A program made the translations under genes and the position numbers. Below are positions 33,151-64,000 of a stretch of 64,000 nucleotides of DNA, in pieces. The DNA is from a virus. The stretch covers positions 675 to 64,674 of IMG/VR virus record IMGVR_UViG_3300014205_000232; one strand, given 5' to 3'. The notes beneath the pieces were generated by a model. It saw nothing but the letters and a program-made list of their open reading frames with translations, did not search any database and was not told the origin of the DNA. The first letter of the stretch is position 1. The number at the start of each line of letters is the position of its first letter.

Positions 33151-33486
33151 ATGAACGTCTACCTGGACGACGTCAAGGGCCTTCCCTTTGGGAACCCCCT
33201 CGGGAATGGATCCTGGGATGACACTGAGGGGTCCACGGGGAAGAAGTGGGAGGTCGTTCGCACGGTGTCGACTTGCGTCGACTTGCTTGCTGCCCATAAG
33301 GGCGATGTTCAGGTCCTGTCCCTGGACTACAGCCTTGAGCACACGGACTGTGGAACGGGTCTGGATGTGTTGGAGTGGCTCGCGGATCACAGGGATTGCC
33401 TTCCCGATTTCATCCGTATTCACAGTGATCACTGGCTTGCCCCCACCCTGCGGCGGAAAAGTCAGGCCCTGATGGCCTCTCGTTAA
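33151..33486 (+). CDS. small receiver-fold protein, paralog of 22004..22372
   Basis: MNVYLDDVKG...SLDYSLEH...TGLDVLEWLADH mirrors MINLYLDDVRG...SLDHDLAD...TGYHVLTWMAEQ. Confidence 0.55.
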   Translation: MNVYLDDVKGLPFGNPLGNGSWDDTEGSTGKKWEVVRTVSTCVDLLAAHKGDVQVLSLDYSLEHTDCGTGLDVLEWLADHRDCLPDFIRIHSDHWLAPTLRRKSQALMASR

Positions 33487-44189: not shown

Positions 44190-44320
44190 GCCATTTCGAT
44201 CACAATAACCCGGGGAGTGTACTCATCCTCCTCGGGTTTTTCTTCTTCTCGAGGAGGCTCCCAACCAAACGGGGGCTCAGGGATCGGGATTTGAAGTTGT
44301 TGGTACTCAGATTCCCACAT
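44186..44320 (-). CDS. candidate 44-aa acidic Pro-rich peptide
   Basis: Minus-strand promoter motif, then GAGGAG, 6 nt, ATG; ORF MWESEYQQLQIPIPEPPFGWEPPREEEKPEEDEYTPRVIVIEMA; below the ORF-track size cutoff; coordinates ±2. Confidence 0.3.
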   Translation of the reverse strand: MWESEYQQLQIPIPEPPFGWEPPREEEKPEEDEYTPRVIVIEMA

Positions 44321-44343
44321 GATCAGCTCCTCGTCTTCCTTGT

Positions 44344-44369
44344 CTACTCAGATCCTCATCCTCATGATC
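44344..44369 (-). promoter_or_regulatory. promoter-like motif (minus strand) downstream of the endolysin
   Basis: Reverse complement gatcatgaggatgaggatctgagtagaca. Confidence 0.4.
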
Positions 44370-44442
44370 CACGGTGGACTCCGTTTTCTTTTTGATAGCT
44401 CCTTCTTGATGACGTGGAACCACTTCCGAGAATGAGGACATC

Positions 44443-45498
44443 ATGAATCCCAGTAGCATTGGCAAAAAAACGGCACCTAGGCAGGTGGATCCCAACTCCC
44501 CTTACCTCAAGAATGTCAATCAGAGGAACTTTTCAGAGTTGTCCTCCTTGATGCGGACTGGGGCTGAAGAATTGGTGCTGGCTCGACGGATGGCCCACCT
44601 GATTAAGACCACCCCGTCACTGGCTCCCGTTTTGACTCCCATGCTCAAAGAAGCAGCCCTGAATTGGCGGGAGGAGTTGGACGCTTTTCATGCCGCCTCC
44701 CATCGGTTTCCGAGCCTAACGGCCGAGACCTGGTCCAACCTCAGTAACTTCAAGAAGTACGCCCTGAGCGTCAAGACCGCTCACGTGGCCCTGTTGCGGT
44801 CCATGGGTTTGACGAAGGAGGCCGTTCGTGACGGTAAAGCCTTCATGGTTTACCACATTGAGGCCGAGGCCAACAAGTCCAAGTTCTACGAGGCTGTGAT
44901 CGTTGAGGAGGAGTTGGGCTACCGCCTTATCCGGCGTTGGGGTGCCCTTACCGACTCCATGGGCACTGGCCGTGTAGACGGGGCTCAGAATGACACACAG
45001 CCTCGCTTCCTCTTCCCGACCCTTATGTCAGCCAAGAAGGCTCTTGAGGAGGTGTACAAAACCCGCATGGCCCATGGCTACATTGACGCCTTTGGACCAA
45101 AGCATAAGACTCCTGATGGCAAGACCCTCCCCATGGGTCAGTACCCCGTAGGTCTCACTCGGACTGTGGGTTTCGGATGGGGTACGCAATCTGTGACCAA
45201 GTGCATCCCTGGTTTGCGGCAGCTTGAGCAGTCCATTGCCTATGCCCGTGAGGAAATCGTCCGCACGGGTAAGAGTGATGAGGTTTTGAACTATCTGTTG
45301 GAGGCTCAAAAGCAGATTTCGGCAGTGGTACATGCAGACAGCTCTATGTCGAACAAGATCCTCTCCGCGGTTGGGTCCGCCATTCGCCGGTTGACTGGGT
45401 CCCCTCGTTTTCTCCCCGACCCTGAGGGTGAAGCCTTGGGCAAGAGTTTACAGACCGTTCAAAAGTACATCCAGAAGCAGCTTTCCCTCTGTTCCTAA
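44443..45498 (+). CDS. hypothetical protein
   Basis: ORF track. Confidence 0.5.
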   Translation: MNPSSIGKKTAPRQVDPNSPYLKNVNQRNFSELSSLMRTGAEELVLARRMAHLIKTTPSLAPVLTPMLKEAALNWREELDAFHAASHRFPSLTAETWSNLSNFKKYALSVKTAHVALLRSMGLTKEAVRDGKAFMVYHIEAEANKSKFYEAVIVEEELGYRLIRRWGALTDSMGTGRVDGAQNDTQPRFLFPTLMSAKKALEEVYKTRMAHGYIDAFGPKHKTPDGKTLPMGQYPVGLTRTVGFGWGTQSVTKCIPGLRQLEQSIAYAREEIVRTGKSDEVLNYLLEAQKQISAVVHADSSMSNKILSAVGSAIRRLTGSPRFLPDPEGEALGKSLQTVQKYIQKQLSLCS

Positions 45499-45510
45499 GT
45501 CGAGGTTCTT

Positions 45511-46335
45511 GTGACCCTGAGAGCCACCATAAAAGTACTCCTCATTGAGGATGACCAGGATGATGCTCGTCTCTTGATCGACCTGATGGGCGATTCAGAG
45601 CGGGCAACATTCATCGTGGACGTCACATACACGGCTCAAGGGGGTTTAGACTCCCTCTCTAAGGGACGATTTGACATTGTTCTTTTGGACTATAAGCTCC
45701 CAGACATGGATGGTCTGCAGGTGCTTCGGGAAATCGAACGCTTGCACTTTCAAATTCCAGTTATCATTGTCACCAGTTACGGGGACCGAAACATCCAAGC
45801 TCGGGCTCTTGAGGCTGGAGCTACCGAGTATCTGGAGAAAGGAACCATCACGTCAGACCTCTTGGAAAGGACTTGCCTGTACACCATCGGTCTAAATGAG
45901 AGGAAACGACCCAATGACTCGGGAGCTGACGTGGGGTCGTTGATCAGTCAACTAGTTGACTTGACACGAGAGTCAGTGAAATCTCAGACCCACAGTACTC
46001 AGGAAATCCGAGAGTTGAGGCGGGAACTAGCGGAGGGTCTTGGATCTTTCAAACAAGAGTTGAAGGAGAGTCAGATCAAAGCAGAACAGCGCAACAATAT
46101 AGTTGTTGGAGAGGTTAAAAACCTCTCCAAGTTCCGGTGGCTGCTTCAATGGATTACGGAGCACCCTACAGCCTCTGTTGTAATGTTTCTCTGCCTGATT
46201 CTGGCTGTTCTCTTCATGATCTTAGCACTTCAGATTCTGGACACCGAGAAGATCAAGCAGGTCAAGGACATCCTTGATGCCCCCGTTACTTTCCTGGTTC
46301 CTAACGAGGTGTCTTGGTGGATTGGACGCCCCTAA
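45511..46335 (+). CDS. response regulator: receiver domain plus coiled-coil plus C-terminal TM helix
   Basis: KVLLIEDDQDD, phospho-acceptor context IVLLDYKLPDMDGL, ...IIVTSYGD..., EAGATEYLEK; C-terminal hydrophobic VVMFLCLILAVLFMILAL. Confidence 0.75.
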   Translation: MTLRATIKVLLIEDDQDDARLLIDLMGDSERATFIVDVTYTAQGGLDSLSKGRFDIVLLDYKLPDMDGLQVLREIERLHFQIPVIIVTSYGDRNIQARALEAGATEYLEKGTITSDLLERTCLYTIGLNERKRPNDSGADVGSLISQLVDLTRESVKSQTHSTQEIRELRRELAEGLGSFKQELKESQIKAEQRNNIVVGEVKNLSKFRWLLQWITEHPTASVVMFLCLILAVLFMILALQILDTEKIKQVKDILDAPVTFLVPNEVSWWIGRP

Positions 46336-48122
46336 AGGACCTGGGCTGTGGGGCCCTAGTTTTTGACACCGCAGGAGACCTTCGTGTGTCCCGTGTGATC
46401 TGGCTTAATGATGTAGCCACACACATGTTTGGTGCCGTCAAAGGGAAAACGTTCATTGAGGTGCTGCCCATCGACGCTTTGTTGCGTATGGCCCGACGAG
46501 TCATGCAGAACGGACCCCCAGAGTGTCTTAAAGGGTGTGCCTACCGAGGACCACAAGGGGTTCGCGGAAACGTTAATTTTGCTCGAGTGGGTAAGAATCT
46601 TGTTCTTACCATTTTTGATGTTGAGCAACTAGCCTCGGAAAGAGATCTGTTTGCGGATCGTTACCGGGCAATAGTCAACTCCCTACCCGACACCGTGCAC
46701 CTGTTGGACCAGAATGGTCTTTTTCTGGATACGCACATTGGTGTGACCAGATTTGACAATGCCACCCCCGAGTTTTACAAAGGGAACACAATCTATGATG
46801 TGTTCCCTGTCCCCGTAGCTCATGGTCTACTCGCTCGTATCCACCTTGCTATTGAGACCGGAGCGACTCAGGAATGGGAGTACACACTTCCCGAGTGGGG
46901 AGACCGTTACATTGAGGCCCGTGTTTTCAAAGTGCACCTCAGTCAAGTAGGACTGGCCGAGGTCATGTTGATTCTACGGGACATCACAGGGAGAAGGCAC
47001 GCTGAGGAGGATCTGAAAGAGACCGCCGAAAACTTCAGAGCCGCTTTTGAGGACAGCCTTGCGGGACAATTTCAACTCAATCCTGATGGCACTTTTCGAC
47101 GTGTCAATGATGCTTTAGTCCAGATGCTGGGGGTCTCCTCTTGTGGAACCCTCCTGGGACAACAGCTGCTGGACTGGGTATACCCAGAAGACTACAGCAA
47201 AGTAGCGGAAGTGATCACTCAAACTTTTGCTCTGTCCCTGGATCAAGGGGGCACGACTAGGCTGGTAACACCTACCAATAAGGTTATCTGGTGTGACTTC
47301 AGCATCAGACCCGTTGAGGTGGACGGGCATGTTCGTTACTCCACGTCCACTATCCTGGACGTGACTGAGAAGCACGACATGCATCAACGATTAGAGCAAC
47401 AAGTGGAGGCTCGAACCGCAGAGTTGCTCAATGCGAATGAAACCATCCAGCAATTTGCCTACACTGCATCTCACGATCTCCGGGAGCCGTTGAACAAGAT
47501 TATTTCCTTTGGCGATCGTCTCTCGCTTAAGTATGAGAGCAAACTGGATGAAACCGGGCTTCAGTATCTGGGCATCATGAAGTCAGCCGCTTTCAGGATG
47601 CGGGCTCTGGTGGACGACATCCTGATCTATGCCAGATCCAATAAAGAAGAGTCAGCCCCGTCTTTGTGCTCCCTCAACGTCATTGTACAGGGTGCACTCT
47701 CCGACTTGGAGGTTCCGATTTCCGAGGCGGATGCCCACATCACGGTGGGAGAACTTCCCAGTGTCATGGGCTACCCTCATCGGCTAGGTCAACTGGTTCA
47801 GAACTTGATCTCCAATGCCGTCAAGTTTCGGCATAAAGATGTTCCTTGCCATGTTTCTATCACAGGAAGTGAACTAGGGGGGATTGCTGAGCTTAGGGTA
47901 CAAGACAATGGCATCGGTTTTGACCCTCAATATGCGGACAAGATTTTTCAAGCCTTCACGCGCCTGCACACTCGGTTTGAGTACCCAGGAACGGGGATCG
48001 GACTAGCTCTCTGTCGTAAAATTGTCGCAATGCACGGGGGTACTATTGAGGCAGTAGGTGTTCCCGGTGCCGGGGCCACTTTTGTGACCAGAATCCCTGT
48101 TCAGGGAGGAACAGCAACATGA
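46314..48122 (+). CDS. sensor histidine kinase with PAS domains (HisKA plus HATPase_c)
   Basis: H-box ASHDLREPLNKI; N/G boxes LISNAVKF, DNGIGF, GTGIGLALCRKIVAMHGG; apparent TTG/GTG start overlapping the upstream stop (start uncertain). Confidence 0.85.
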   Translation: MVDWTPLKDLGCGALVFDTAGDLRVSRVIWLNDVATHMFGAVKGKTFIEVLPIDALLRMARRVMQNGPPECLKGCAYRGPQGVRGNVNFARVGKNLVLTIFDVEQLASERDLFADRYRAIVNSLPDTVHLLDQNGLFLDTHIGVTRFDNATPEFYKGNTIYDVFPVPVAHGLLARIHLAIETGATQEWEYTLPEWGDRYIEARVFKVHLSQVGLAEVMLILRDITGRRHAEEDLKETAENFRAAFEDSLAGQFQLNPDGTFRRVNDALVQMLGVSSCGTLLGQQLLDWVYPEDYSKVAEVITQTFALSLDQGGTTRLVTPTNKVIWCDFSIRPVEVDGHVRYSTSTILDVTEKHDMHQRLEQQVEARTAELLNANETIQQFAYTASHDLREPLNKIISFGDRLSLKYESKLDETGLQYLGIMKSAAFRMRALVDDILIYARSNKEESAPSLCSLNVIVQGALSDLEVPISEADAHITVGELPSVMGYPHRLGQLVQNLISNAVKFRHKDVPCHVSITGSELGGIAELRVQDNGIGFDPQYADKIFQAFTRLHTRFEYPGTGIGLALCRKIVAMHGGTIEAVGVPGAGATFVTRIPVQGGTAT

Positions 48123-48577
48123 CACGACCTCTGAGTGTGATTTTTGCAGAGGACGACGATGAGGACTGGATCCTCATCGCTGACGTCATTGACTCCTGCC
48201 CCCTTAGGGACAAACTCACGTTGGAACGTGTCCGTGACGGCCAACAACTGTTGGACCGCCTACGGGACACGGACCTGCCCCATCCTGACGTTGTCCTCCT
48301 GGACATTCAAATGCCTCGGAAGAACGGCCTTGAGACTCTACTGGAAATGAGAGCAGAGGAGGCCCTCCGTTCAATCCCAGTGATCATACTGACCACATCA
48401 GAGGCTGAATCGGATGTCTTCCGATCCTATCAGAGTGGGGCCAACTCCTACGTGGTGAAACCCGGGAGTTCTGTTGAGGCCCTTCTGCATGCTCTCAAAA
48501 ACTACTGGGTGGGGGTATGTCGGATCCCAACCCCACGCCCTGCCCTGACACATCAGGTGAAACATGAAGAGCCTTGA
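48119..48577 (+). CDS. single-domain response regulator (CheY-like)
   Basis: SVIFAEDDDED, VVLLDIQMPRKNGL, IPVIILTTSEAE, GANSYVVKP; ATGA-coupled to the kinase. Confidence 0.8.
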   Translation: MTRPLSVIFAEDDDEDWILIADVIDSCPLRDKLTLERVRDGQQLLDRLRDTDLPHPDVVLLDIQMPRKNGLETLLEMRAEEALRSIPVIILTTSEAESDVFRSYQSGANSYVVKPGSSVEALLHALKNYWVGVCRIPTPRPALTHQVKHEEP

Positions 48578-48983
48578 GGCACTCCTTAAAATAGCGGCAC
48601 CTGGAGCTGAGGCCCTACGCCTGTTGTCCAAGGTGGAAGAGCTAATCAAGGAAAACACTTATCAGCAGGAACTGATGGACCTGCTGATAAGTAAAGGTGA
48701 GGCTCGTCGTCTGGGACGGCTCACTGACGTCAAGGTGACCACCTTTGCCCTGCAGGGCAACAAGATCCAAGCCCTGGTACAAGGAACATCTGGAGTGTAT
48801 CAGACGTCCATCACTTTGTCCCCTCGAGGGCATCGGTGTAGTTGCCCCGATTGGCTTCAAAATGGCCCCAAGGTGGGACCCTGCAAGCATGTTTTAGCCC
48901 TGGCCGTAGCTTGGCAAGAGGAACGACTAGGGCCCCAAATGGAGGCCCTAGTCGAAAATCTTTTGGTCACTCTGGGTTCTTAG
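48564..48983 (+). CDS. SWIM zinc-finger protein
   Basis: CSCPDWLQNGPKVGPCKHVLAL is a CxC...CxH SWIM signature; overlaps the upstream stop. Confidence 0.6.
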   Translation: MKSLEALLKIAAPGAEALRLLSKVEELIKENTYQQELMDLLISKGEARRLGRLTDVKVTTFALQGNKIQALVQGTSGVYQTSITLSPRGHRCSCPDWLQNGPKVGPCKHVLALAVAWQEERLGPQMEALVENLLVTLGS

Positions 48984-51165
48984 CTAGCTGACTATCCCTA
49001 ACCTCTTTCTTATAGCGATAGCCGCCGTTACTCAAACCCCTCTTGTGAGCCTCAATCTCTTGTTTGGCCTCCGCTTCCCAGTACTCTTGTTGCTGAAGAA
49101 GCCCCGCCATCAAAGCCTTGTAGTCGAAGGGACCTGTGCCAACAGGTTGCAAGATCCCGGGCCCCATTCTCCAAACATCTGAAAGGATCCGATCCGCATC
49201 GAATCCCTCCGCCAGTCCTTTGGCGACCAAGAATTCCTTGACCGTGTTGCGATGCTTTTGGAAAAGGGACGGCATCTTTCGATGCATCTCCACATAGTCC
49301 CGCACTACTTGGAGAGCCTCTTGACAGGCGGCCTTGATCAGGAGGAACTGGTTTTCCCCCTCCACAATCTTGGCCTCAGCAAGTTTCCGTTGCCACCAAG
49401 CGGCGTACTTCCGACCCTGGTCTTCAAACTCGGAGGCTTGGGCCAATTTTTGACCCGCAAGGGTCAAAAACAATGCTCCATCGGAGGGGCGCAGGTTCTC
49501 AAGATCCGTGTTGCTTTGGCCGGACTTGCTGGCAAAAAGGATCTCCACGGTGGCCCTCATCTGCTCAAAAGCAGCCTCAAGTCTCTTCTCCAGGATTTTC
49601 TGTGTGTCGCCCCCCGCTTGGTAGATGTCATGCATTTGCTTGAACTGGTTTTCCAGTTTGACACAACTTGCCTGAAGATTGTCCGCCTCGGCCAAGAGGC
49701 TCTTGGTCTGCAGGGACAGAGGAGGAGTCCTCGCCACCGTGAGCATGACACTCCAGTGACCTTGCACGGCGACCCAAGTGATCTCAGGGTTGTGCTCTGG
49801 CGGGAGATCTGAGGGTGCTACAAATTGAGTCATTCTCTGTTGGGCCTCAGCAAAATGCCGGGCCCCGGCTGCCATGATAGCCACCAGCTCAAAAACCCTC
49901 GCCCGGATCTTCTCCTCTTGCTCCCGATCCTTGTGGACCATGTCAGCAAACCCCACGGGGTCCAGCCTCAACACGTCCTCCTTTTCCTGCATGGCCTTCA
50001 CGGGGTCAGGATAGAGAAAATGGTCACTGATCCATTCATGGGACAACTGAGCGTGATCAAGTCGCGCCTCCAGCTCCATATAGCGTCCCGGGGGCAAGTA
50101 AGAGATTGCAGGCTTGCTCTTTCTCTCGATAGCAACTTCAAGACGAACCACCAGGGTGAGAAACTGCTGAATCTGGGCCCTTGTACCCCGGTCCTCACCC
50201 CGGAGGTTGTTCCAGACTTGACCCATCCGATGACGGTTGTTGTTTTTCAAGGTGCTGCTCAGACTTTGGTACCTCTCCGAGATTGAAAGCTCAAGCTGGG
50301 TCAGCAGGTCCGAGGCTTCCTTGAACAGGTTGTATGTGTTCCCCTTGGAGGCTACCAGAGTCTGCACCCCCTCCCACCGTGTGGTCAACTCGGGCAACTC
50401 AGTGAGGTACCAAGTGCTATACATCTGGTACAGTTCCGACAACTGCCGCCGACGGGACCTTTTATCCGCCACCATGGTGGAAATCATCATGATCAGCCAT
50501 CCAAAAAGGACCAACACGGCTACAGGACCCATTATGTAGATCAAGATCATAGGGTCGGCCTCATCCTTCTTGGGGTAGCTCTCAAAGAGGAGATCCGGGC
50601 TAGACTGTTTGGCCTTGATGGTCTCAGGGTCCGTGTGCTCAAAGAGGTACTTGTCCAGATCCTTCATCACACTGAGAATGGCCCTCGTGGGATCCTTGGG
50701 GGTGCCCGTCAAAACGGACCGGAAGGACCCCAAGAAATCAACCATGCGATCCTGGGTGAGGCTCAACTCCTTCTGCCAGCGTGACCCGGTCATCAGTCGG
50801 ATGTACCGGGGCTGATAGGAGAGCACAAAGAGCGACGATGTTTCCGGGTTGAAGAGCATGGGGTTCTTTTCCGCCCATGTGTTCCACACCCTCTCGGTGG
50901 CCTCAGTGATTTGGGCTAGGCCACTCTTTTGTTCCTCTTCTGGGGTCTCGATCTTGTCAAAGATCACCACGTAGAAGGGATGACGGGACTGAGATGCGAG
51001 TGCCTGTAGGGCAAGGATCCCGTCGTACTCAATCCCAGGGGGATGGAAACCTTCGGGTACGGTGTACACGAAAATGCCACCATGCAACGTGGGAACCTGG
51101 CTCTCGGCGAGAGCCGGACCAGCCCCCAGAAATAACATGGCAAAGCAAAGGGATAGAAACCGCAT
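48967..51165 (-). CDS. large membrane protein with signal peptide and TPM-like domain
   Basis: Start at MRFLSLCFAMLFLGAGPALA after minus-strand promoter motif and AGAGGAG RBS; TPM-like GIFVYTVPEG...FYVVIFDKIE; central TM LVLFGWLIMMI. Confidence 0.55.
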   Translation of the reverse strand: MRFLSLCFAMLFLGAGPALAESQVPTLHGGIFVYTVPEGFHPPGIEYDGILALQALASQSRHPFYVVIFDKIETPEEEQKSGLAQITEATERVWNTWAEKNPMLFNPETSSLFVLSYQPRYIRLMTGSRWQKELSLTQDRMVDFLGSFRSVLTGTPKDPTRAILSVMKDLDKYLFEHTDPETIKAKQSSPDLLFESYPKKDEADPMILIYIMGPVAVLVLFGWLIMMISTMVADKRSRRRQLSELYQMYSTWYLTELPELTTRWEGVQTLVASKGNTYNLFKEASDLLTQLELSISERYQSLSSTLKNNNRHRMGQVWNNLRGEDRGTRAQIQQFLTLVVRLEVAIERKSKPAISYLPPGRYMELEARLDHAQLSHEWISDHFLYPDPVKAMQEKEDVLRLDPVGFADMVHKDREQEEKIRARVFELVAIMAAGARHFAEAQQRMTQFVAPSDLPPEHNPEITWVAVQGHWSVMLTVARTPPLSLQTKSLLAEADNLQASCVKLENQFKQMHDIYQAGGDTQKILEKRLEAAFEQMRATVEILFASKSGQSNTDLENLRPSDGALFLTLAGQKLAQASEFEDQGRKYAAWWQRKLAEAKIVEGENQFLLIKAACQEALQVVRDYVEMHRKMPSLFQKHRNTVKEFLVAKGLAEGFDADRILSDVWRMGPGILQPVGTGPFDYKALMAGLLQQQEYWEAEAKQEIEAHKRGLSNGGYRYKKEVRDSQLAKNPE

Positions 51166-51191
51166 GGGAAACTCCTCTGGTGTCTGCACTA

Positions 51192-55694: not shown

Positions 55695-56153
55695 ATGGAC
55701 ACTCAGATTTTTCGAGACCTGGAGTCGGGACTGTGGAACGAGATCAATCCCGACAAGTGCCCGTGCCAGGGGAACGGCTGGATCCTGAGTGACTGGGATA
55801 CTTGGCATCGGTGCCAGAGGCACGGTGTCAACGTGCCTCACCCGGAGGAAGAGGCCGAATTCAACGTTAAGGCCCACCGCCTGAACCTCTACCGCGATGC
55901 CTTCCGCCAGTACAAGGTCGCGGCTGAGCGCCTGGGTCTGAGGGGGACTTTCAAGGACGCCTGCCTTGCCCACCTGAAGGGGCCGGGCCCCTCAGCTGGT
56001 CCCTCGGCCTGGGTTGCAGCGGCCGAGAAGGTCTTTGTGGAGCTGGGGCAGGCCCGTGCGGACGAAGAGGCAACCCGCCAGGGTTTCAGCTGCGCCCTGG
56101 AGGCCAGCTGGGCTGACGAGGCTGAAAACGACCGGCGGGAAGCCGGTCTCTAA
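55695..56153 (+). CDS. hypothetical protein with Cys/His cluster
   Basis: Promoter motif with a long leader; CPCQGNGW...WHRCQRHG. Confidence 0.45.
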   Translation: MDTQIFRDLESGLWNEINPDKCPCQGNGWILSDWDTWHRCQRHGVNVPHPEEEAEFNVKAHRLNLYRDAFRQYKVAAERLGLRGTFKDACLAHLKGPGPSAGPSAWVAAAEKVFVELGQARADEEATRQGFSCALEASWADEAENDRREAGL

Positions 56154-56160
56154 GGGAAAC

Positions 56161-57489
56161 ATGGATAATCATTGTGGATTCACGGGAACTCGTGAAACCC
56201 TGACGGAGGCTCAAAGAACCACCCTGAAAGTGGTTCTTTTGGCACTCAAAGGTCGGGGATTTACACACCTCCATCATGGGGACTGCAAAGGCGCTGATGC
56301 GTCGGCAGACGCTCTTGCCTTAGAGTTGGGTCTTTTGCGGGTCTCTCACCCCCCAGATATCAACACCCTGCGGGCCTACTGTAAAGCGGAGGAGGTCCGT
56401 ACCCCAAAGGCTTACCTGACACGCAACGCAGATATTGTGGCTGAGTCCGCTGTCATGGTGGCTTGCCCCCGTGACATGACGGAGACTCAAAGGTCAGGCA
56501 CTTGGTCCACCATCCGCTTAGCTAGGAAGAAGGGGGTCAAGTTGTTGATCATCCTGCCTAGCGGGCAAGTCAAGGGGGGTGATCATGTCAGCCCCCCTCC
56601 GAGTAGTACTCCAGTACCAGAAACACTTCCCCCTCAGGTTTTTCAGATGGCAAAAAAGATCCAGATGACACCACGGCACACGGACAAGTACGTCGTGATG
56701 TTCCTATCCTATGGGGCCAATCGTCCGGCATACGGAAATGCTCGGGACGTGGCCATTGGGGACGTCCTCACCTATTTTGAGGAGAGCCGTTTCACGACCC
56801 AGGTCGTGTCCTCAGTGAACGCCGTCGGGTGCAAGGTGGCCCCCATGGTGGTAGGTGACTTCGTTGTGGCTGACGCCGCTACCGTCACCTACGACTCGTT
56901 CTACGAGATCTTGCGGCCCAGGACTTCGATCAGTGGAGACCTGACACCACCTGCCCCTCTCGAAATCGAGGAGGAGGAAGAGGTCACCGAGGATGAAACG
57001 GAGGACGATGAGATCGTAGTGGTGGAGCCAACCCCGGTGGTCGAGAGCACCGAGCCCGAAGAAGACATGCCGGTCGAGACCCCCGTTGAGGAAGAAGACC
57101 CCTCAGTCGAGACCCCCGTTGAGGAGGAGACCCCCATTGAACCTGAGGTAGCGGAGATTGAGGTCCCCGTTGTGCCCCAGGTGGCGGCACCGCCGAGTCC
57201 CGTTGAGGCACCAAAAGTCAAGGCTCCCAAGGCTGACCCGAAGCCCAAGGGGACGGAGGAAAGGGACCCCCGACTCCCCCCCGCGGGCCACTTTTTGGTG
57301 GTCCCCCAGAAGGGTTCGGCTCGGCCCTCGGCGACCCTCGATATGGTCACGGTCCTTGAACAGGGCTTCGAGTATCAGGGAATCTTCTACAAGTCCCTCT
57401 CGGGTCTGGCCAAGACTATCACGGGGAAGGGGGTCAATGGTTTTGCCCACTTCAACCTGACGGAGCCCTGGGTAGACAAGGAGAACTGA
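56161..57489 (+). CDS. protein with N-terminal SLOG/DUF2493-like Rossmann domain and acidic Pro/Glu/Val repeat C-terminus
   Basis: Start at Met50 of the ORF-track frame (MDNHCGFTGTRE...HHGDCKGADA); 33-bp coding tandem repeats PVETPVEEE; an internal promoter motif lies at the domain boundary. Confidence 0.5.
   Translation: MDNHCGFTGTRETLTEAQRTTLKVVLLALKGRGFTHLHHGDCKGADASADALALELGLLRVSHPPDINTLRAYCKAEEVRTPKAYLTRNADIVAESAVMVACPRDMTETQRSGTWSTIRLARKKGVKLLIILPSGQVKGGDHVSPPPSSTPVPETLPPQVFQMAKKIQMTPRHTDKYVVMFLSYGANRPAYGNARDVAIGDVLTYFEESRFTTQVVSSVNAVGCKVAPMVVGDFVVADAATVTYDSFYEILRPRTSISGDLTPPAPLEIEEEEEVTEDETEDDEIVVVEPTPVVESTEPEEDMPVETPVEEEDPSVETPVEEETPIEPEVAEIEVPVVPQVAAPPSPVEAPKVKAPKADPKPKGTEERDPRLPPAGHFLVVPQKGSARPSATLDMVTVLEQGFEYQGIFYKSLSGLAKTITGKGVNGFAHFNLTEPWVDKEN
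56581..56609 (+). promoter_or_regulatory. intragenic promoter-like motif
   Basis: gatcatgtcagcccccctccgagtagtac inside the 56161..57489 reading frame. Confidence 0.35.
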
Positions 57490-58219: not shown

Positions 58220-59248
58220 ATGACAAGCAACGTAGCCCGTATGGTCCTTTTGCTCCTGGCTATGACCATGCCAGGTTGTCCCGCCTGTGAGGAACGTGTC
58301 CCAGCAGGCCACATCGGCCGGACTTGGGAACCATCTGGTTCCTCGGCTGAACTGTTGGCCCCTGGAACCCACACCTGTTGGGGCAGGTGTGAGATGCTCC
58401 TGATGGAGGTGGGAGACGCAAACTTCAAGATCCCCATGAATGTGCTTTGTGCCGATGACTTGAACTTCAAGTTCGAGATCAACATCCTTGCCTCCGTGGA
58501 CCAGTCATCAAAGGATGCCATTCTTTGGGCCTTTGAGAATCTCAATCCAACGGTGCCTGGGTTGATCACCACGGATCAGCTTTTTCAGACCTACATCCAG
58601 CCCCTGGCCGTGGAAAAGTCCAGCAAGGCGATTTTTAGGTATGCCACGACAGAGATCGCGAAGAACCGAGCACAGGTGACGGAAGAGGTTCGCACTGCGG
58701 TCCTGGAGGCCACTAAGGGCTTGATCATCCAGGTCAAGCAGGTCTCTGTCAGCAACCTTGAGTTTCCACCCCTCATTATGGCGGCTCAAGAGGCCCGAGC
58801 ACAGCGCCAGATTGAGATCGAGACCGCAAAGGCTGAGGGTGAGAAGAAGGCCGCCACTGCTCAGGCCCGTGTGACCCTTGCTCGTATTGAGGCGAATGAA
58901 CGTTTGCTCAGGGCCCAGTCACAAGCCGACTCCAACCGTATCCTGGCCTCCTCCGTTTCCCCCCAGCTGCTTGCTTGGCGTCAGTACGAGGTGATGGAAG
59001 CAGCCGCTGGTGGTGCAAACAACATGTTCCTGATCCCCTACACGGACACAGCCAACAAGGGACTCGACACCACCCGTTGGATGGACAGTCAGGGAATCTT
59101 GGATGCTCAGCTGCTGCGGCGTATGCAAGAGGCCCAGGAGTCAGCTGAAGAAGTCTCCCGGCCTACCGTACCTCTCAGTTTCCCCGCCCTGTTGGAGCAA
59201 GCCAAGAAGGTTCCGGCGGTAGAGGTTGAGACTCCCGCCCTTCCGTAA
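58220..59248 (+). CDS. SPFH/Band-7 (stomatin/prohibitin/HflKC-like) protein
   Basis: SPFH core with ...RVTLARIEANERLLRAQSQADS coiled-coil tail; terminator follows. Confidence 0.75.
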   Translation: MTSNVARMVLLLLAMTMPGCPACEERVPAGHIGRTWEPSGSSAELLAPGTHTCWGRCEMLLMEVGDANFKIPMNVLCADDLNFKFEINILASVDQSSKDAILWAFENLNPTVPGLITTDQLFQTYIQPLAVEKSSKAIFRYATTEIAKNRAQVTEEVRTAVLEATKGLIIQVKQVSVSNLEFPPLIMAAQEARAQRQIEIETAKAEGEKKAATAQARVTLARIEANERLLRAQSQADSNRILASSVSPQLLAWRQYEVMEAAAGGANNMFLIPYTDTANKGLDTTRWMDSQGILDAQLLRRMQEAQESAEEVSRPTVPLSFPALLEQAKKVPAVEVETPALP

Positions 59249-59310: not shown

Positions 59311-59553
59311 ATGACTTTTGAGATTCAGCCCTCTAAACCTTTGGTCAATCGTCGCATAACCCTTTCCTTTGACCTAGGGCCGCCACGACGCCCTCAAAGC
59401 TGGTGGCGTCGTCTGTGGTTGTGGGTGCGTCGACTGTTTTCTAAGTCCCCACCACTAGCCCCTGAGGACAAAGCGGCAAAGGCGATGGCTCAGGACATTG
59501 CTCGTATGGAGGACGAGAGGATCCTCACGGAGTTGAGTCAGAGGTGCCCATGA
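59311..59553 (+). CDS. small cationic Trp-rich protein (candidate toxin partner)
   Basis: RPQSWWRRLWLWVRRLF amphipathic segment; 10-nt overlap with the downstream Panacea-domain gene. Confidence 0.4.
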   Translation: MTFEIQPSKPLVNRRITLSFDLGPPRRPQSWWRRLWLWVRRLFSKSPPLAPEDKAAKAMAQDIARMEDERILTELSQRCP

Positions 59554-59990
59554 TCCGCGTACAAGATGTAGCCTTCTACCTGTACAACAAGGTGCCGATC
59601 ACGCATTTGAAGATGCATCGGATCTTGTATTATGCCCAGGCGTGGTCCCTTGTTTGGGACAAGCAACCCTTGTTTGGGGACGAGATCCAAGCATGGCCCG
59701 GTGGCCCCATGATCCCAACCCTCTATGAGACGCTCAAGGGCCAGTTCATGGTGGACGTGTGGCCTGCGGGGGACTGGACGCCCTTGACGGAGGAGCAGTT
59801 GGACACTGTGGATTCGGTGCTTGACTTTTATTTCAAGTACTCGGCCCAACAACTGAGTGAGTTGTCACGTCGAGAAGACCCTTGGATGGACGCAAGGCAT
59901 GGTTTTCGTCATGGGGATCCATGCAACGTGGTCATCAGCCATGAGTCCATGCAAAAGTACTACTCCAGTTTGCTGATCTCGCCGGCATAG
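59544..59990 (+). CDS. Panacea/DUF4065 (SocA-like antitoxin domain) protein
   Basis: HLKMHRILYYAQAWSLVWDKQPLFGDEIQAWPGGPMIPTLY matches the DUF4065 N-terminal signature (KLqKLLYyAqgw.L...g.pLF.e.i.AW..GPV). Confidence 0.65.
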   Translation: MPMIRVQDVAFYLYNKVPITHLKMHRILYYAQAWSLVWDKQPLFGDEIQAWPGGPMIPTLYETLKGQFMVDVWPAGDWTPLTEEQLDTVDSVLDFYFKYSAQQLSELSRREDPWMDARHGFRHGDPCNVVISHESMQKYYSSLLISPA

Positions 59991-61041: not shown

Positions 61042-62046
61042 TTGAGGTTCCCTTTGGAGACATTCAGACAAACGCTTAAGTTTCCCGATGCCGCAATTCT
61101 GAAGAAGGCCGTTGGTCCAGAGCAGTGCAACCTACATGCTCTGGCTGAATCTGCTTGTGTCAAGATTCACCACCAATCGCGTCGTCTTGTGATTGAGGCT
61201 GAACATGAGTTGGATCTCGCGAAGGCCATAGGCTTGGTGGATCAGTTGATCCGGCGGGCAAAGGAAGGAAAGGAGACTCTACCTAGGGCGGTTAAACACA
61301 TGGCAAATCTGAAAAGGACCTCGGAGTCGGACACCTCAGTAGTCAAGCCCAAGACCGAAGGCCAGCGTGAATACCTGGACGTCATTCGCAGGCACGACAT
61401 GGTGTTTGGACTGGGACCGGCGGGCACAGGAAAAACGTTTCTGGCCGTAGCTGAGGCCGTCAAGGCTCTGCAGCAAAATAAGGTCAGTCAGTTGATCCTC
61501 ACTCGTCCCGCGGTTGAGGCGGGTGAGCGGCTCGGGTTCCTACCTGGAACGGCACAGGAGAAGGTGGACCCTTACCTCCAGCCGCTCTTTGACTCTCTCA
61601 TCAAGTTGTTGGGCAAGAGTCAGGTCGAGGCCATGCGTAAGAAGGGCACCATTGAGTTGGCCCCTATCGCCTTCATGAGAGGCCGGACCCTCGAGAATGC
61701 CTTTGTGCTCTTGGACGAGGCTCAGAACTGCACGTTCGAGCAGTTGATGATGTTGATCACCCGGTTGGGTGAGGGTTCCAAGTGTGTTGTGACGGGTGAC
61801 GCATCCCAGGTAGACTTGGATCGGACTCGCAGCGGGTTGGTTGAAATGGTCCATGTCCTTCAGGACGTGGAGGGCATTGGGACCTGTTTCCTCACGGCAG
61901 ATGACGTTGTGCGTCACCCCCTGGTGACTCGTATCGTGACCGCCGTTGAGAAGTACCAGGCAGAGAAGCCCGGTGCCCGTGAGAACCCCAACCTCAAGAG
62001 GGAGTACCCCAAGAGCAAGAAGCGGGATGACTATCCTCCCTACTGA
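61042..62046 (+). CDS. phoH: PhoH-like ATPase
   Basis: Walker A GPAGTGKT, LTRPAVEAGERLGFLPG, LLDEAQN, VVTGDASQVDL; apparent TTG start; terminator follows. Confidence 0.85.
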   Translation: MRFPLETFRQTLKFPDAAILKKAVGPEQCNLHALAESACVKIHHQSRRLVIEAEHELDLAKAIGLVDQLIRRAKEGKETLPRAVKHMANLKRTSESDTSVVKPKTEGQREYLDVIRRHDMVFGLGPAGTGKTFLAVAEAVKALQQNKVSQLILTRPAVEAGERLGFLPGTAQEKVDPYLQPLFDSLIKLLGKSQVEAMRKKGTIELAPIAFMRGRTLENAFVLLDEAQNCTFEQLMMLITRLGEGSKCVVTGDASQVDLDRTRSGLVEMVHVLQDVEGIGTCFLTADDVVRHPLVTRIVTAVEKYQAEKPGARENPNLKREYPKSKKRDDYPPY

Positions 62047-63571: not shown

Positions 63572-64000
63572 CCATGAAGCACCGCCGGTCAAAAAGGACT
63601 CTCTCGACTGAAGACATTGAGGAACTGATGGCGTCTTTGGGCAAGGACGACGGTCCCGATTTTGACGACGATGGGAAGGACATCGCAGTCGTAGGGAATC
63701 GGGTCTTTTTCTATCAGGATGTGAATTCGTCCAGTGCCGCAAACTTGGCCACTACCCTAAGGGCTGTTGCCATGGATCTCCAGATTGAACAGGTGCATTT
63801 GGATCTGCCCTCCTGCCGTCCTATTCATCTACACATCAACAGTCAGGGTGGAGACCTGTTTGCCGGCTTTGCCCTTGTGGACACGCTTCGTGGGTTGAAG
63901 GTACCCGTGCATACGCATGTGGAGGGTGGTGCTGCAAGTGCAGCGACACTTTTCTCGGTGGTAGGGAAACACCGCACCATTGGCAAGCACAGTTTCATTC
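63572..64000 (+). CDS. ClpP-family serine protease (possible prohead protease), 3'-partial
   Basis: IHLHINSQGGDLFAGFALVDTLRGLKVPVHTHVEGGAASAATLF matches the ClpP core (INSPGG...G.AI.DT...PV.T...G.AAS.A); runs off the window; start ±2. Confidence 0.6.

Follow-up and report, generated by a model that had tools for sequence, protein, structure and literature searches.

A conserved WGR-led sensor-kinase cassette with a predicted membrane-anchored receiver in a probable uncultivated huge phage

Phages are known to sense the state of their hosts either by way of host regulators or by small peptide and quorum signals. The presence, on a viral contig, of a histidine kinase gene flanked by two receiver genes raises the question of whether a phage lineage encodes a complete sensory circuit of its own and, if so, what that circuit acts upon. 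We analysed a 64,000-nt stretch of the IMG/VR record IMGVR_UViG_3300014205_000232 (hereafter, the window) and conclude, with a probability of roughly 60%, that five genes on the + strand from 44443 to 48983 form an operon in an uncultivated huge phage, and that its core, namely a WGR-domain protein, a membrane-anchored receiver (RR1), a histidine kinase and a stand-alone receiver (RR2), constitutes a self-contained phosphorelay.

The four ORFs between 45511 and 48983 are real and intact, with all catalytic residues in place (Table 1). The junctions from RR1 through the kinase and RR2 to the SWIM gene are tight or overlapping, and a Shine-Dalgarno-like motif precedes each ORF, consistent with the overlapping or coupled genes described in the initial annotation. 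The four-gene content read there (a TM-anchored receiver, a PAS kinase, a stand-alone receiver and a SWIM protein) is likewise borne out by the ORFs and by Pfam matches above gathering scores. The four-gene boundary, however, was drawn too narrowly: a gene encoding 351 aa with a probable WGR domain had been missed. Because only 12 bp separate this gene from RR1 and it accompanies the cassette across loci, it is part of the unit, which thus spans 44443-48983. Upstream, a terminator-like hairpin likely sets the 5' limit of the transcription unit, a function that we infer.

Table 1 Features of the WGR-RR1-kinase-RR2-SWIM region, in window positions.
Feature	Position	Strand	Basis or remark
Terminator-like hairpin followed by a U-run	44207..44238	+	just past the amidase gene; 11-bp stem, dG -21.5 kcal/mol, z -3.2, then UUUUUCUUCUUCU
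WGR-domain protein (351 aa), first cassette gene	44443..45498	+	Pfam WGR and conserved position
RR1 (274 aa): receiver (residues 9-119), conserved helical module, coiled coil, C-terminal TM anchor	45511..46335	+	Pfam Response_reg
Codon of the predicted phospho-acceptor Asp60 of RR1	45688..45690	+	invariant alignment column
RR1 hydrophobic segment (residues 215-248), predicted single TM helix, N-in topology	46153..46254	+	Kyte-Doolittle peak 3.11
Soluble PAS-PAS HisKA kinase (601 aa; alternative TTG start at 46314)	46317..48122	+	Pfam domains
Codon of the phospho-accepting His386 (601-aa numbering), H-box SHDLREPL	47472..47474	+	invariant in 8 orthologues
RR2 (152 aa), stand-alone receiver, Rcp1/RcpA (phytochrome-associated) type	48119..48577	+	Response_reg, 8.3e-18
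SWIM zinc-finger protein (139 aa)	48564..48983	+	Pfam SWIM, 1e-6
GC-rich hairpin, 13 bp	48924..48954		within the 3' end of SWIM, directly after the stop codon of the 740-aa gene
Convergent neighbour (740 aa)	48967..51189	-	outside the cassette

The order WGR-domain protein, RR1, kinase and RR2 recurs at at least eight independent loci (the window and L012, L014, L020, L021, L028, L029 and L032), with 38-57% identity and a GC content ranging from 45% to 62%. The WGR gene stands directly 5' of RR1 in 11 loci; the truncated contigs L038, L039 and L043 show this junction. The WGR match of the window protein itself (E 5.9e-4, 20.3 bits) falls just under the Pfam gathering score of 22; many of its homologues have precomputed PF05406 matches, and the family profile matches the WGR domain of PARP3 with an E-value of 0.018. 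An AF2 model (pLDDT 81.5) places a β-sheet and a helix ahead of a C-terminal four-helix bundle. This bundle was considered as an HPt domain and rejected, as it has no conserved solvent-exposed His.

All domains of the kinase score above their gathering thresholds: PAS_4 (residues 121-228 in 602-aa numbering, E 5e-15), PAS (240-352, 3.5e-11), HisKA (379-443, 2.5e-10; 40.7 bits against a cut-off of 26.9) and HATPase_c (488-597, 3.7e-25; 88.9 bits). The phospho-accepting His, whose possible absence had been raised as a doubt, is invariant in the alignment of eight orthologues, as are N496/N500, D530-G532-G534, F544/F547 and G558-G560-G562 of the N, G1, F and G2 boxes, confirming a kinase with intact H, N and G boxes. 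Hydrophobicity analysis revealed no TM segment in the kinase, RR2 or the SWIM protein. The sensor region varies among the orthologues, with GAF+PAS, single-PAS, PAS-rich and hybrid forms; at the sequence level, sensor domains are swapped among lineages, and the kinase core and both receivers stay constant. Among solved structures, the kinase core lies nearest to 8f71 (1e-43) and to the bacteriophytochrome kinase modules 8sgk and 8avv, and the closest kinase over the full length is an orthologue in another cassette (42% identity). No NCBIfam equivalog cut-off is reached: the best kinase score is 140 bits against 1200 (LvrA), PhoR gives 101 against 334, and the receivers lie far under their cut-offs. 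Assignment to a named cellular two-component system (PhoR/PhoB, NtrB/C and the like) was accordingly rejected.

RR1 matches Response_reg with an E-value of 8.3e-22, above the gathering score, and its D14, D15, D60, T88 and K110 (the acidic pair, the acceptor Asp, the Thr and the Lys) are invariant in nine orthologues. Its hydrophobic segment, the sole one of its kind among the five operon proteins, is flanked by K/R residues on the N-terminal side. Together with the receiver match, this single segment agrees with the earlier description of a receiver joined to a coiled coil and a C-terminal TM helix. The C-terminal module of RR1 is very rare, with 30 matches in 1.84 billion protein representatives, about 23 of which have the RR1 architecture. 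Versions of 120-153 aa that lack the REC domain also exist (P0265, P0266 and P0268), and no characterised relative of the module was found. In PHROGs, RR1 shows no similarity to the lysis families, and its matches are receiver families of no assigned function.

In RR2, D12, D13, D62, T92 and K114 are invariant across the orthologues, which, with the Response_reg match, upholds its identification as a stand-alone CheY-like receiver. Its best solved relatives are 6xvu, the response regulator of 8avv, RcpA (1k68), Rcp1 (1i3c) and RcpB (1k66), a likeness to the Rcp proteins that is one of primary structure only. An Rcp1/RcpA-type system with a PAS-GAF-PHY bilin module was also considered and rejected, as the window kinase has only PAS families and no GAF or PHY domain in Pfam. 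GAF-like N-termini occur in two of the kinase orthologues.

The 3' end of the operon is less conserved. The SWIM gene is translationally coupled to RR2 in the window phage, and its product carries the expected motif, CxCx14CxH at residues 92-109 (CSCPDWLQNGPKVGPCKH; PF04434, 28.6 bits against a cut-off of 19.6). Thus, the SWIM zinc-finger gene named in the initial annotation is present, whereas membership of the conserved unit does not hold, the gene being absent from the seven other complete cassettes and from an IMG/VR pattern scan. The only homologue found (37-39% identity), at the more distant locus L047, directly follows the WGR gene and conserves the CSCPDWLQNGPKVGPCKH motif. The hairpin inside the SWIM 3' end, which is strong on both strands (dG -28 to -29 kcal/mol, z about -7.4), probably terminates the 740-aa gene. 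This neighbour, initially annotated as divergent and as a TPM-domain protein, is convergent with the operon, the 3' ends overlapping by 17 bp, and has no match, TPM or other, in Pfam (E<=1), NCBIfam, PHROGs or PDB sequences (E<=10). Hydrophobicity points to a signal-like N-terminus, an external domain of ~180 aa, a TM segment at 210-243 and a helical cytoplasmic part of ~500 aa; a single-sequence model (pLDDT 46) was too poor for use. At L046, a locus without two-component genes, the gene convergent to WGR encodes a 903-aa homologue with 34% identity across the N-terminus.

These observations bear on the view, taken in the initial annotation, that a four-gene operon with the SWIM protein as an integral output serves lysis timing or a lysogeny-like decision. 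The translational coupling of SWIM to RR2 fits such a role, an endolysin-like amidase is encoded 250 bp upstream of the unit, and a phospho-controlled, tail-anchored membrane protein might in theory behave as a holin or antiholin. The absence of SWIM from the other complete cassettes argues against this view, as do the amidase gene, which adjoins only in the window phage, lies 5 kb away at L032 and is absent from the other flanks, and the terminator-like hairpin that separates it from the unit. Moreover, the window showed neither an integrase nor a repressor close to the cassette, and RR1 resembles no PHROG lysis family. We regard a lysis or lysogeny function as quite improbable.

The window most probably derives from an uncultivated huge phage, of which it covers a fragment. 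Cassette orthologues are located on IMG/VR contigs of 381,280 and 435,804 bp, and WGR homologues on contigs of up to 536 kb; the contigs of the window itself extend to 97.7 kb plus about 15 kb of overlap, relative to a huge-phage criterion of >200 kb. The window PolA is 48.6% identical to that of its nearest GenBank relative, the 485-kb phage LR745208.1, which matches 10 of the 70 window ORFs. Neighbours of a kind typical for jumbo phages, namely genes for ThyX, dNK, TK, NAD-ligase, PhoH, PARP, Macro, cREC and an intein-containing PolA, surround the cassette, and a ClpP-like gene matches the PHROG 'head maturation protease' (2.7e-41). Because about 120 kb of contiguous sequence (the window and ~55 kb of flanks in all) revealed no gene for a capsid, portal or terminase, viral identity rests on these relatives, the gene content, the head-protease match and IMG/VR membership. 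It might be argued that the window comes from a bacterial chromosome, plasmid or other large extrachromosomal element that was mis-binned or mis-classified, and that its two-component system is an ordinary cellular one: tail genes are likewise missing from the window and flanks, and two contigs are filed in MAG GCA_043955735.1. We consider this very improbable given the phage relatives and orthologous cassettes on long viral contigs, the lack of tRNA, rRNA and Rfam matches and of housekeeping genes, and ORFs that are mostly small orphans. In addition, a pattern-limited search of 185,579 species genomes returned no relative of the WGR protein. The initial concern that the window might be host chromosome is thus allayed by the phage relatives, the gene content and the IMG/VR cassettes. 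The cassette also appears not to be a recent host capture, since the nearest full-length kinase, at 42% identity, belongs to another cassette, no equivalog cut-off is reached, the pattern-limited search gave no cellular WGR relative and the GC content spans 45-62%.

Sensor kinases were initially described as rare in viral genomes, and this is supported by the deposited phage records, of which 131 of 50,697 contain any match, all at <=30% identity and many evidently in bacterial contigs. Nevertheless, phage kinases are not absent, because the window proteins match HK-like and REC-like PHROGs families of unassigned function (phrog_857 and phrog_731), and phoR/phoB and other two-component genes have been published. 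The phage kinase and receivers could equally exchange phosphate with host partners. Under such a scheme there would be no closed circuit: the kinase would phosphorylate host regulators, or the receivers would be decoys draining phosphate from host kinases. Single-domain receivers commonly act as sinks, and neither phage receiver has an output domain to explain a transcriptional response. An action of phage PhoR on host PhoB has been proposed (PMC10987575). However, the kinase and both receivers have been kept as a coupled operon in phages of 45-62% GC with presumably different hosts, no close cellular homologue or equivalog match was found, and phage phoR/phoB genes in the literature group with bacterial reference proteins, whereas the cassette genes do not. 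On balance, hijacking of a host network seems unlikely.

Returning to the self-contained phosphorelay, we propose a plausible mechanism. First, the kinase would read a cytoplasmic cue via its PAS (or GAF) domains and autophosphorylate at His386. As suggested by gene adjacency, the phosphoryl group would then pass to Asp60 of RR1 and Asp62 of RR2 in a branched pathway. Phosphorylation of RR1 might alter how its coiled-coil and TM module oligomerises or binds partners, which would amount to a protein-level event at the inner membrane and not to classical transcriptional control. Since the receiver is fused to a stand-alone tail-anchored helical module, a cue from interchangeable PAS/GAF sensors would become a membrane event. 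Pfam revealed no DNA-binding domain on RR1 or RR2; the output is therefore probably non-transcriptional and at the membrane. RR2 may be a diffusible adaptor, or else a phosphate sink by which the response time is set. The WGR protein and, in the window phage, the SWIM protein are candidate nucleic-acid-binding partners, linked to the relay by conserved adjacency only. Taken at its fullest, this mechanism would make the cassette a huge-phage sensory phosphorelay targeting a phage membrane protein, with a WGR nucleic-acid-binding partner: the first two-component system of a virus to have a non-transcriptional membrane output, and a dedicated cell-state sensor of lytic giant phages. We put this forward tentatively, as a rather doubtful proposal.

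The WGR link to the cassette may also be mere synteny, and the WGR gene occurs without two-component genes at L046 (49% identity) and L048. L046, which nests among the loci with two-component genes in a rough NJ tree, encodes a WGR protein, a 154-aa coiled-coil protein with a C-terminal TM segment and a 2H-like protein. L047 has the order WGR, SWIM, a 180-aa coiled-coil and TM protein, REC and a PAS kinase; L042 has WGR, an 81-aa protein, a 168-aa coiled-coil and TM protein, REC, a kinase and a 2H-like protein; and L037 has WGR, a TM and coiled-coil protein and a REC-like protein. These loci raise the possibility that an ancestral system of WGR and a membrane coiled-coil protein, accompanied or not by SWIM, 2H phosphoesterase and VWA and perhaps linked to NAD/ADP-ribose or nucleic-acid-status machinery, came first, that the kinase only tunes it and that the receiver was later fused to the membrane partner in this clade. 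The joint occurrence of WGR, VWA and SWIM genes in the E. coli yeh cluster and the richness of the window in PARP, Macro, ADP-ribosyl-GH and cREC genes are in line with such a history. Comparison of the coiled-coil and TM proteins of L042, L046 and L047 with the RR1 module, however, gave an HMM E-value of 7.6 or no match and an hhalign probability of 0.5%, so that their likeness is only positional and architectural. Furthermore, the WGR match of the window protein is below threshold, and no direct link to ADP-ribose enzymes was found. A two-component add-on to a WGR-centred system is thus a possible reading that we hold to be rather doubtful.

The self-contained phosphorelay suggests that a giant-phage lineage with its own complete sensor-kinase circuit monitors the conditions of the infected cell itself and does not depend on host sensors only. 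If so, a long-kept phage kinase sensor with inputs swapped between relatives would represent an investment of giant phages in intracellular sensing. The fusion of RR1 to a rare membrane module provides a concrete and cheap handle, as three soluble proteins and one tail-anchored protein can be expressed free of the host. The WGR-centred gene neighbourhood of huge phages has apparently been described by nobody so far.

Several known systems share parts of this design. In branched two-component systems, a single-domain receiver can act as a phosphate sink, as in Sinorhizobium, where CheA operates with two CheY proteins. The cassette similarly encodes one kinase with two receivers, one of them stand-alone; in contrast, it has no chemotaxis components, its second receiver is membrane-anchored and a sink role for RR2 is presumptive. 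The kinase core and RR2 are closest by sequence to the families of Cph1-Rcp1-type systems, in which a small receiver gene likewise lies directly 3' of the kinase gene, whereas the cassette lacks a phytochrome photosensory module, has a second, membrane-anchored receiver upstream and is phage-encoded. The E. coli yeh cluster (YehF/YehH WGR, YehI DUF4132, YehL MoxR ATPase, YehP VWA and YehQ SWIM) resembles the phage loci in combining WGR and SWIM, with SWIM right after WGR at L047 and VWA adjacent at L046. It differs in its MoxR ATPase and DUF4132 genes, which were not seen in the phage loci, and the phage WGR protein is further set apart by an N-terminal helical region and a C-terminal four-helix bundle of its own. 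Among jumbo phages, cREC proteins share the receiver fold and are encoded by two genes elsewhere in the window, but they are described as never associated with histidine kinases and as linked to NAD/ADP-ribose enzymes (Iyer et al. 2021, PMC7824862). Both RR1 and RR2, in turn, belong to the classical receivers (PF00072) and are encoded beside a kinase. Finally, phage-borne histidine-kinase and receiver genes have been reported as phoR/phoB-type auxiliary genes in soil viral contigs, clustering with bacterial reference proteins (PMC10987575), and as two-component proteins in the annotation tables of ammonia-oxidiser phages (bioRxiv 10.64898/2026.05.02.722434). Whereas those genes are single, host-like or merely tabulated, the cassette described here has no close cellular counterpart, contains a receiver architecture (RR1) that is near-absent elsewhere and joins a kinase with two receivers in an operon conserved within its lineage.

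All four reading frames of the two-component operon described in the initial annotation were recovered on the plus strand where it had placed them, and their domain content was confirmed by Pfam matches that all exceed the gathering score: receivers in RR1 (E = 8.3e-22) and in RR2 (8.3e-18), PAS_4, PAS, HisKA (2.5e-10) and HATPase_c (3.7e-25) in the kinase, and a SWIM zinc finger (1e-6) in the small protein that follows. A hydrophobicity scan also supported the predicted membrane tethering of RR1, detecting a single transmembrane (TM)-length segment (residues 215-248) in this protein and none in the kinase, RR2, the SWIM protein or the upstream WGR-like protein. Gene junctions in the operon are overlaps except for one 12-bp gap, and a Shine-Dalgarno-like GAGG/GGAGG motif lies 5' of every start codon. 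The unit begins further upstream than originally drawn: the 351-aa WGR-like gene belongs to it, because it lies 12 bp from RR1 and is conserved with the cassette. Two hairpins bracket this enlarged unit, a terminator-like one (44207-44238) after an amidase gene, in a 253-bp gap before the WGR gene (44190-44442), and a strong one (48924-48954) behind the convergent 740-aa gene. On the plus strand the gap has no recognizable sigma-70-like promoter; the scan returned a single weak site, which faces the wrong way, whereas shuffled sequences gave more, and it is uninformative for this phage. Gene callers annotated a 44-aa ORF on the opposite strand within the same gap.

The gene following the operon had been described as a divergent neighbor encoding a TPM-domain membrane protein. 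It is in fact convergent, its 3' end overlapping that of the operon by 17 bp, and a TPM domain is unsupported: the 740-aa product has no match in Pfam (E ≤ 1) or NCBIfam, nor in PHROGs or PDB sequences (E ≤ 10). A single-sequence model (pLDDT 46) was not good enough to search for related folds. The gene is missing from all other cassette loci mapped.

Coordinates of the features discussed (window positions unless a locus is named; L0xx, fetched metagenomic loci or contigs, of which L010 and L017 supply sequence past the two window ends)
Feature	Position	Strand	Description
WGR-like protein	44443-45498	+	351 aa, upstream of RR1
RR1	45511-46335	+	274 aa
Kinase	46314/46317-48122	+	602/601 aa
RR2	48119-48577	+	152 aa
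SWIM protein	48564-48983	+	139 aa
740-aa gene	48967-51189	-	convergent with operon
ClpP-like gene	63574-64000, cut by window end; whole gene L017 9269-9907	+	PHROG head-maturation-protease families, 2.7e-41
Family-A DNA polymerase	L010 1-2166, same contig, just upstream of window position 1		1416 aa, LAGLIDADG intein
RF2-like release factor	19835-20524, site near 20411	-	CTT TGA C programmed +1 frameshift site, GGQ motif
NAD/ADP-ribose toolkit loci	10090-11019, 21405-22001, 22004-22372, 25886-27529, 33151-33486	+, -, -, +, +
Genes in a row 3' of ligase	56014-57489, 58220-59248, 59544-59990, 61042-62046		DUF2924/GTP-binding-like, Band_7, SocA_Panacea (antitoxin-type), PhoH
Hybrid cassette kinases	L014 10001-11893; L028 10831-12723		extra C-terminal receiver
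L046 (536-kb contig)			WGR (49% identical), 154-aa coiled-coil protein with C-terminal TM, 2H-like, convergent 740-aa homologue; no two-component genes
L047 (326 kb)			WGR, SWIM homologue, 180-aa coiled-coil+TM protein, receiver, PAS kinase
L042			WGR, 81 aa, 168-aa coiled-coil+TM protein, receiver, membrane PAS kinase, 2H-like
L048			WGR homologue locus; no two-component genes

Among full-length relatives of the kinase, even the nearest shares just 42% identity. On its contig and on that of a second relative, the kinase gene is preceded by one for a receiver protein of 275-281 aa and followed by one for a receiver of 145-163 aa. When every protein of the window was mapped to the fetched loci, the gene order WGR-like, RR1, kinase, RR2 emerged at eight loci that are independent of one another: the window itself, L012, L014, L020, L021, L028, L029 and L032. 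Identities to the window proteins are 40-53% for WGR, 39-57% for RR1, 38-50% for the kinase and 45-55% for RR2; GC content ranges from 45% to 62%. Three truncated contigs (L038, L039 and L043) keep WGR followed by RR1 up to the contig end. The SWIM gene, originally counted as a member of the unit, is missing from every other cassette locus mapped and was dropped from the conserved set. The endolysin-like amidase was likewise discarded as a consistent partner. This gene bears on the earlier idea that the operon times lysis or makes a lysogeny-like decision: it adjoins the cassette here, but in this phage alone, and the proposal has no specific support.

A single kinase sequence used as a query against IMG/VR returned no relatives, and the IMG/VR relatives were recovered only with alignments of the WGR protein and RR1. 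By tblastn, neither of these two proteins has a counterpart in deposited phage genomes; only generic receiver matches appeared, many of them in plainly bacterial contigs. A pattern-limited scan of 185,579 species-representative genomes, in which absence is not proof, detected neither the cassette nor the WGR-like protein. Two paralogous genes without a family match (~240-260 aa; 20636-21421, plus strand, and 23011-23736, minus strand) have homologues that, in almost all related loci, lie 1-5 kb 5' of the WGR gene; in the window the distance is ~21 kb, and this phage has therefore undergone a rearrangement of the region.

The residues expected for phosphotransfer are retained throughout. In RR1, Asp14, Asp15, Asp60, Thr88 and Lys110 are invariant among nine sequences, as are Asp12, Asp13, Asp62, Thr92 and Lys114 of RR2 among eight. 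The kinase boxes were correctly described as intact: His386, within SHDLREPL, shows no variation, nor do the N, G1, F and G2 boxes. The region 5' of the kinase core varies in architecture among loci, comprising a GAF-like domain and one PAS in two loci, a single PAS in one, an extra N-terminal region with two PAS domains in three (the window included), and a different PAS pair in two whose kinases are hybrids. These last two cassettes (L014 and L028) have three receivers and no recognizable HPt protein. The combination of a fixed transmitter and fixed receivers with exchangeable inputs is the pattern expected of a working signaling module under re-tuning, not of a decaying passenger gene.

In RR1 the receiver is followed by a Gly-rich linker and a conserved helix with the consensus LIEQLVxLTRxSVxAQ; a variable coiled coil and a W-x-L-x-W motif lead into the single TM helix, after which comes a tail of 25-35 residues. 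An exhaustive HMMER search of 1.84 billion representatives with residues 120-274 returned only 30 proteins at E ≤ 0.001, ~23 of which share the size and register of RR1, while three short proteins (120-153 aa) have the module without a receiver. Given the rarity of the module and the existence of these receiver-less versions, RR1 is a fusion of a receiver to an independent module with a predicted tail anchor.

The WGR domain of the window protein falls slightly under the Pfam threshold, many of its homologues carry PF05406, and the family profile matches the WGR domain of PARP3 with an E value of 0.018. A confident structural model of it (pLDDT 81.5) comprises an N-terminal helical region, a WGR sheet with a helix and a C-terminal four-helix bundle; an HPt role for the bundle was rejected, as it has no conserved His. 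The family comprises ~150 clusters, all metagenomic, and extends beyond loci bearing two-component genes. One recurrent gene neighbor is a membrane-anchored coiled-coil protein, a position filled by RR1 in the window's clade. The parallel is only architectural, because the coiled-coil+TM proteins of L042, L046 and L047 have no detectable homology to the C-terminal module of RR1 (HMM E value of 7.6 or no match; hhalign probability 0.5%). This wider distribution bears on a WGR-centered system in which the two-component proteins are an accessory regulator, a minority possibility that is compatible with the main reading set out below. The E. coli yeh cluster likewise brings WGR, VWA and SWIM genes together.

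Two further features of these loci were noted. The 81-aa ORF right after the WGR gene of L042 (6940-7185) repeats the N-terminal motif FDPxxIG...DQRxFxE of the WGR protein, which the locus's own WGR protein lacks, and looks like a gene fission or permutation. After the WGR/membrane-protein module, L042 (9796-10272) and L046 (9473-9946) encode homologous ~158-aa proteins with two HxT motifs, judged by eye to be 2H phosphoesterase-like; the L046 protein has no Pfam match at E ≤ 1.

The window is the reverse complement of approximately positions 1-64000 of a 97.7-kb metagenomic contig. Three further datasets contain its sequence, and the four copies of the cassette do not differ at all (100% identity), so selection cannot be read from strain variation. 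Small orphan genes predominate in the ~120 kb of contiguous sequence around it, which includes no housekeeping genes; Rfam and tRNA scans of the window returned no match. Recognizable genes encode ThyX, thymidine kinase, deoxynucleoside kinase, NAD-dependent ligase, PhoH, RNase T, the endolysin-like amidase, a PARP catalytic domain, Macro, ADP-ribosylglycohydrolase, NADAR, two cREC proteins, an RF2-like factor and a family-A polymerase with a LAGLIDADG intein. The ClpP-like head-maturation-protease match is the sole virion-related gene found; genes 3' of it have no PHROG structural matches, and the next one (313 aa) is unmatched. Two IMG/VR viral contigs, of 381,280 and 435,804 bp, carry orthologous cassettes, and WGR homologues are found on contigs reaching 536 kb. 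The closest deposited relative of the polymerase fragment, at 48.6% identity, is LR745208.1, a 485-kb "uncultured phage"; everything else is far less similar, and that phage encodes homologues of 10 of the 70 window ORFs. Deposited phages contain no near-identical DNA. The viral identity of the window is strongly supported by these comparisons and unproven from its own contig, since capsid, portal and terminase genes were not seen in the available ~120 kb.

Several other genes merit mention. The RF2-like protein, ~230-240 aa in total and far shorter than cellular RF2, has a 49% identical homologue in LR745208.1. The NAD/ADP-ribose toolkit is dense, comprising ADP-ribosylglycohydrolase, Macro adjoining cREC, a 547-aa PARP-catalytic protein and a second cREC, with NADAR just past the window end (L017); these genes, cREC included, are separate from the cassette's classical receivers. 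In the row 3' of the ligase a MAG copy differs slightly, with a Band_7 protein of 358 aa versus 342 aa; the cassette is identical nonetheless.

As read from these comparisons, a huge-phage lineage is shown to keep a WGR protein together with a soluble kinase and two classical receivers as a coupled operon, with the sensors exchanged and the chemistry apparently intact. Both receivers lack a DNA-binding domain, and RR1 is membrane-anchored. We propose that the kinase reads a cytoplasmic cue and phosphorylates both receivers. At the inner membrane, phosphorylation would shift how the coiled-coil and TM module of RR1 associates, and RR2 would act as a sink or adaptor. Nucleic-acid binding may be supplied by the WGR protein, joined in this phage by SWIM, as suggested by their adjacency. 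We assign a probability of about 0.6 to this whole reading. Cross-talk of the cassette with host systems is an unlikely alternative account of the same kinase and receivers.

The rarity of sensor kinases in viral genomes was borne out, although they are documented. A kinase-like match occurs in 131 of 50,697 deposited phage records, all at ≤~30% identity, and many of the 131 are clearly bacterial contigs. Many of the "phage" records that match the kinase or the receivers, such as OR844989.1, OR846587.1, AGRM01000002.1 and CAKLQH020000002.1, are large unannotated contigs or contain genes usual in bacteria (qseB, kdpE, arylsulfatase). Such entries look like bacterial sequence deposited as phage and inflate the apparent number of phage-borne two-component genes. 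Soil viral contigs with phoR and phoB that cluster with bacterial references have been reported (PMC10987575), and two-component proteins are listed for ammonia-oxidizer phages in a 2026 preprint (bioRxiv 10.64898/2026.05.02.722434). The jumbo- and huge-phage surveys consulted describe no such cassette, and one stresses that the cREC domain is never associated with kinases (PMC7824862). The cassette proteins match HK-like and REC-like PHROGs families lacking an assigned function and approach no NCBIfam equivalog cut-off; thus, they are not orthologues of any named system such as PhoR/PhoB. The kinase core is most similar to the solved kinase 8f71 (1e-43) and to bacteriophytochrome kinase modules, and RR2 to phytochrome-associated single-domain regulators (6xvu, the 8avv response regulator, RcpA, Rcp1 and RcpB); unlike phytochromes, the kinase has no photosensory module detectable by Pfam. 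What is new relative to these systems is a complete, lineage-conserved cassette with a receiver fused to a rare membrane module, sensor swapping and WGR linkage, which offers a clear, testable case of predicted phage-encoded intracellular sensing.
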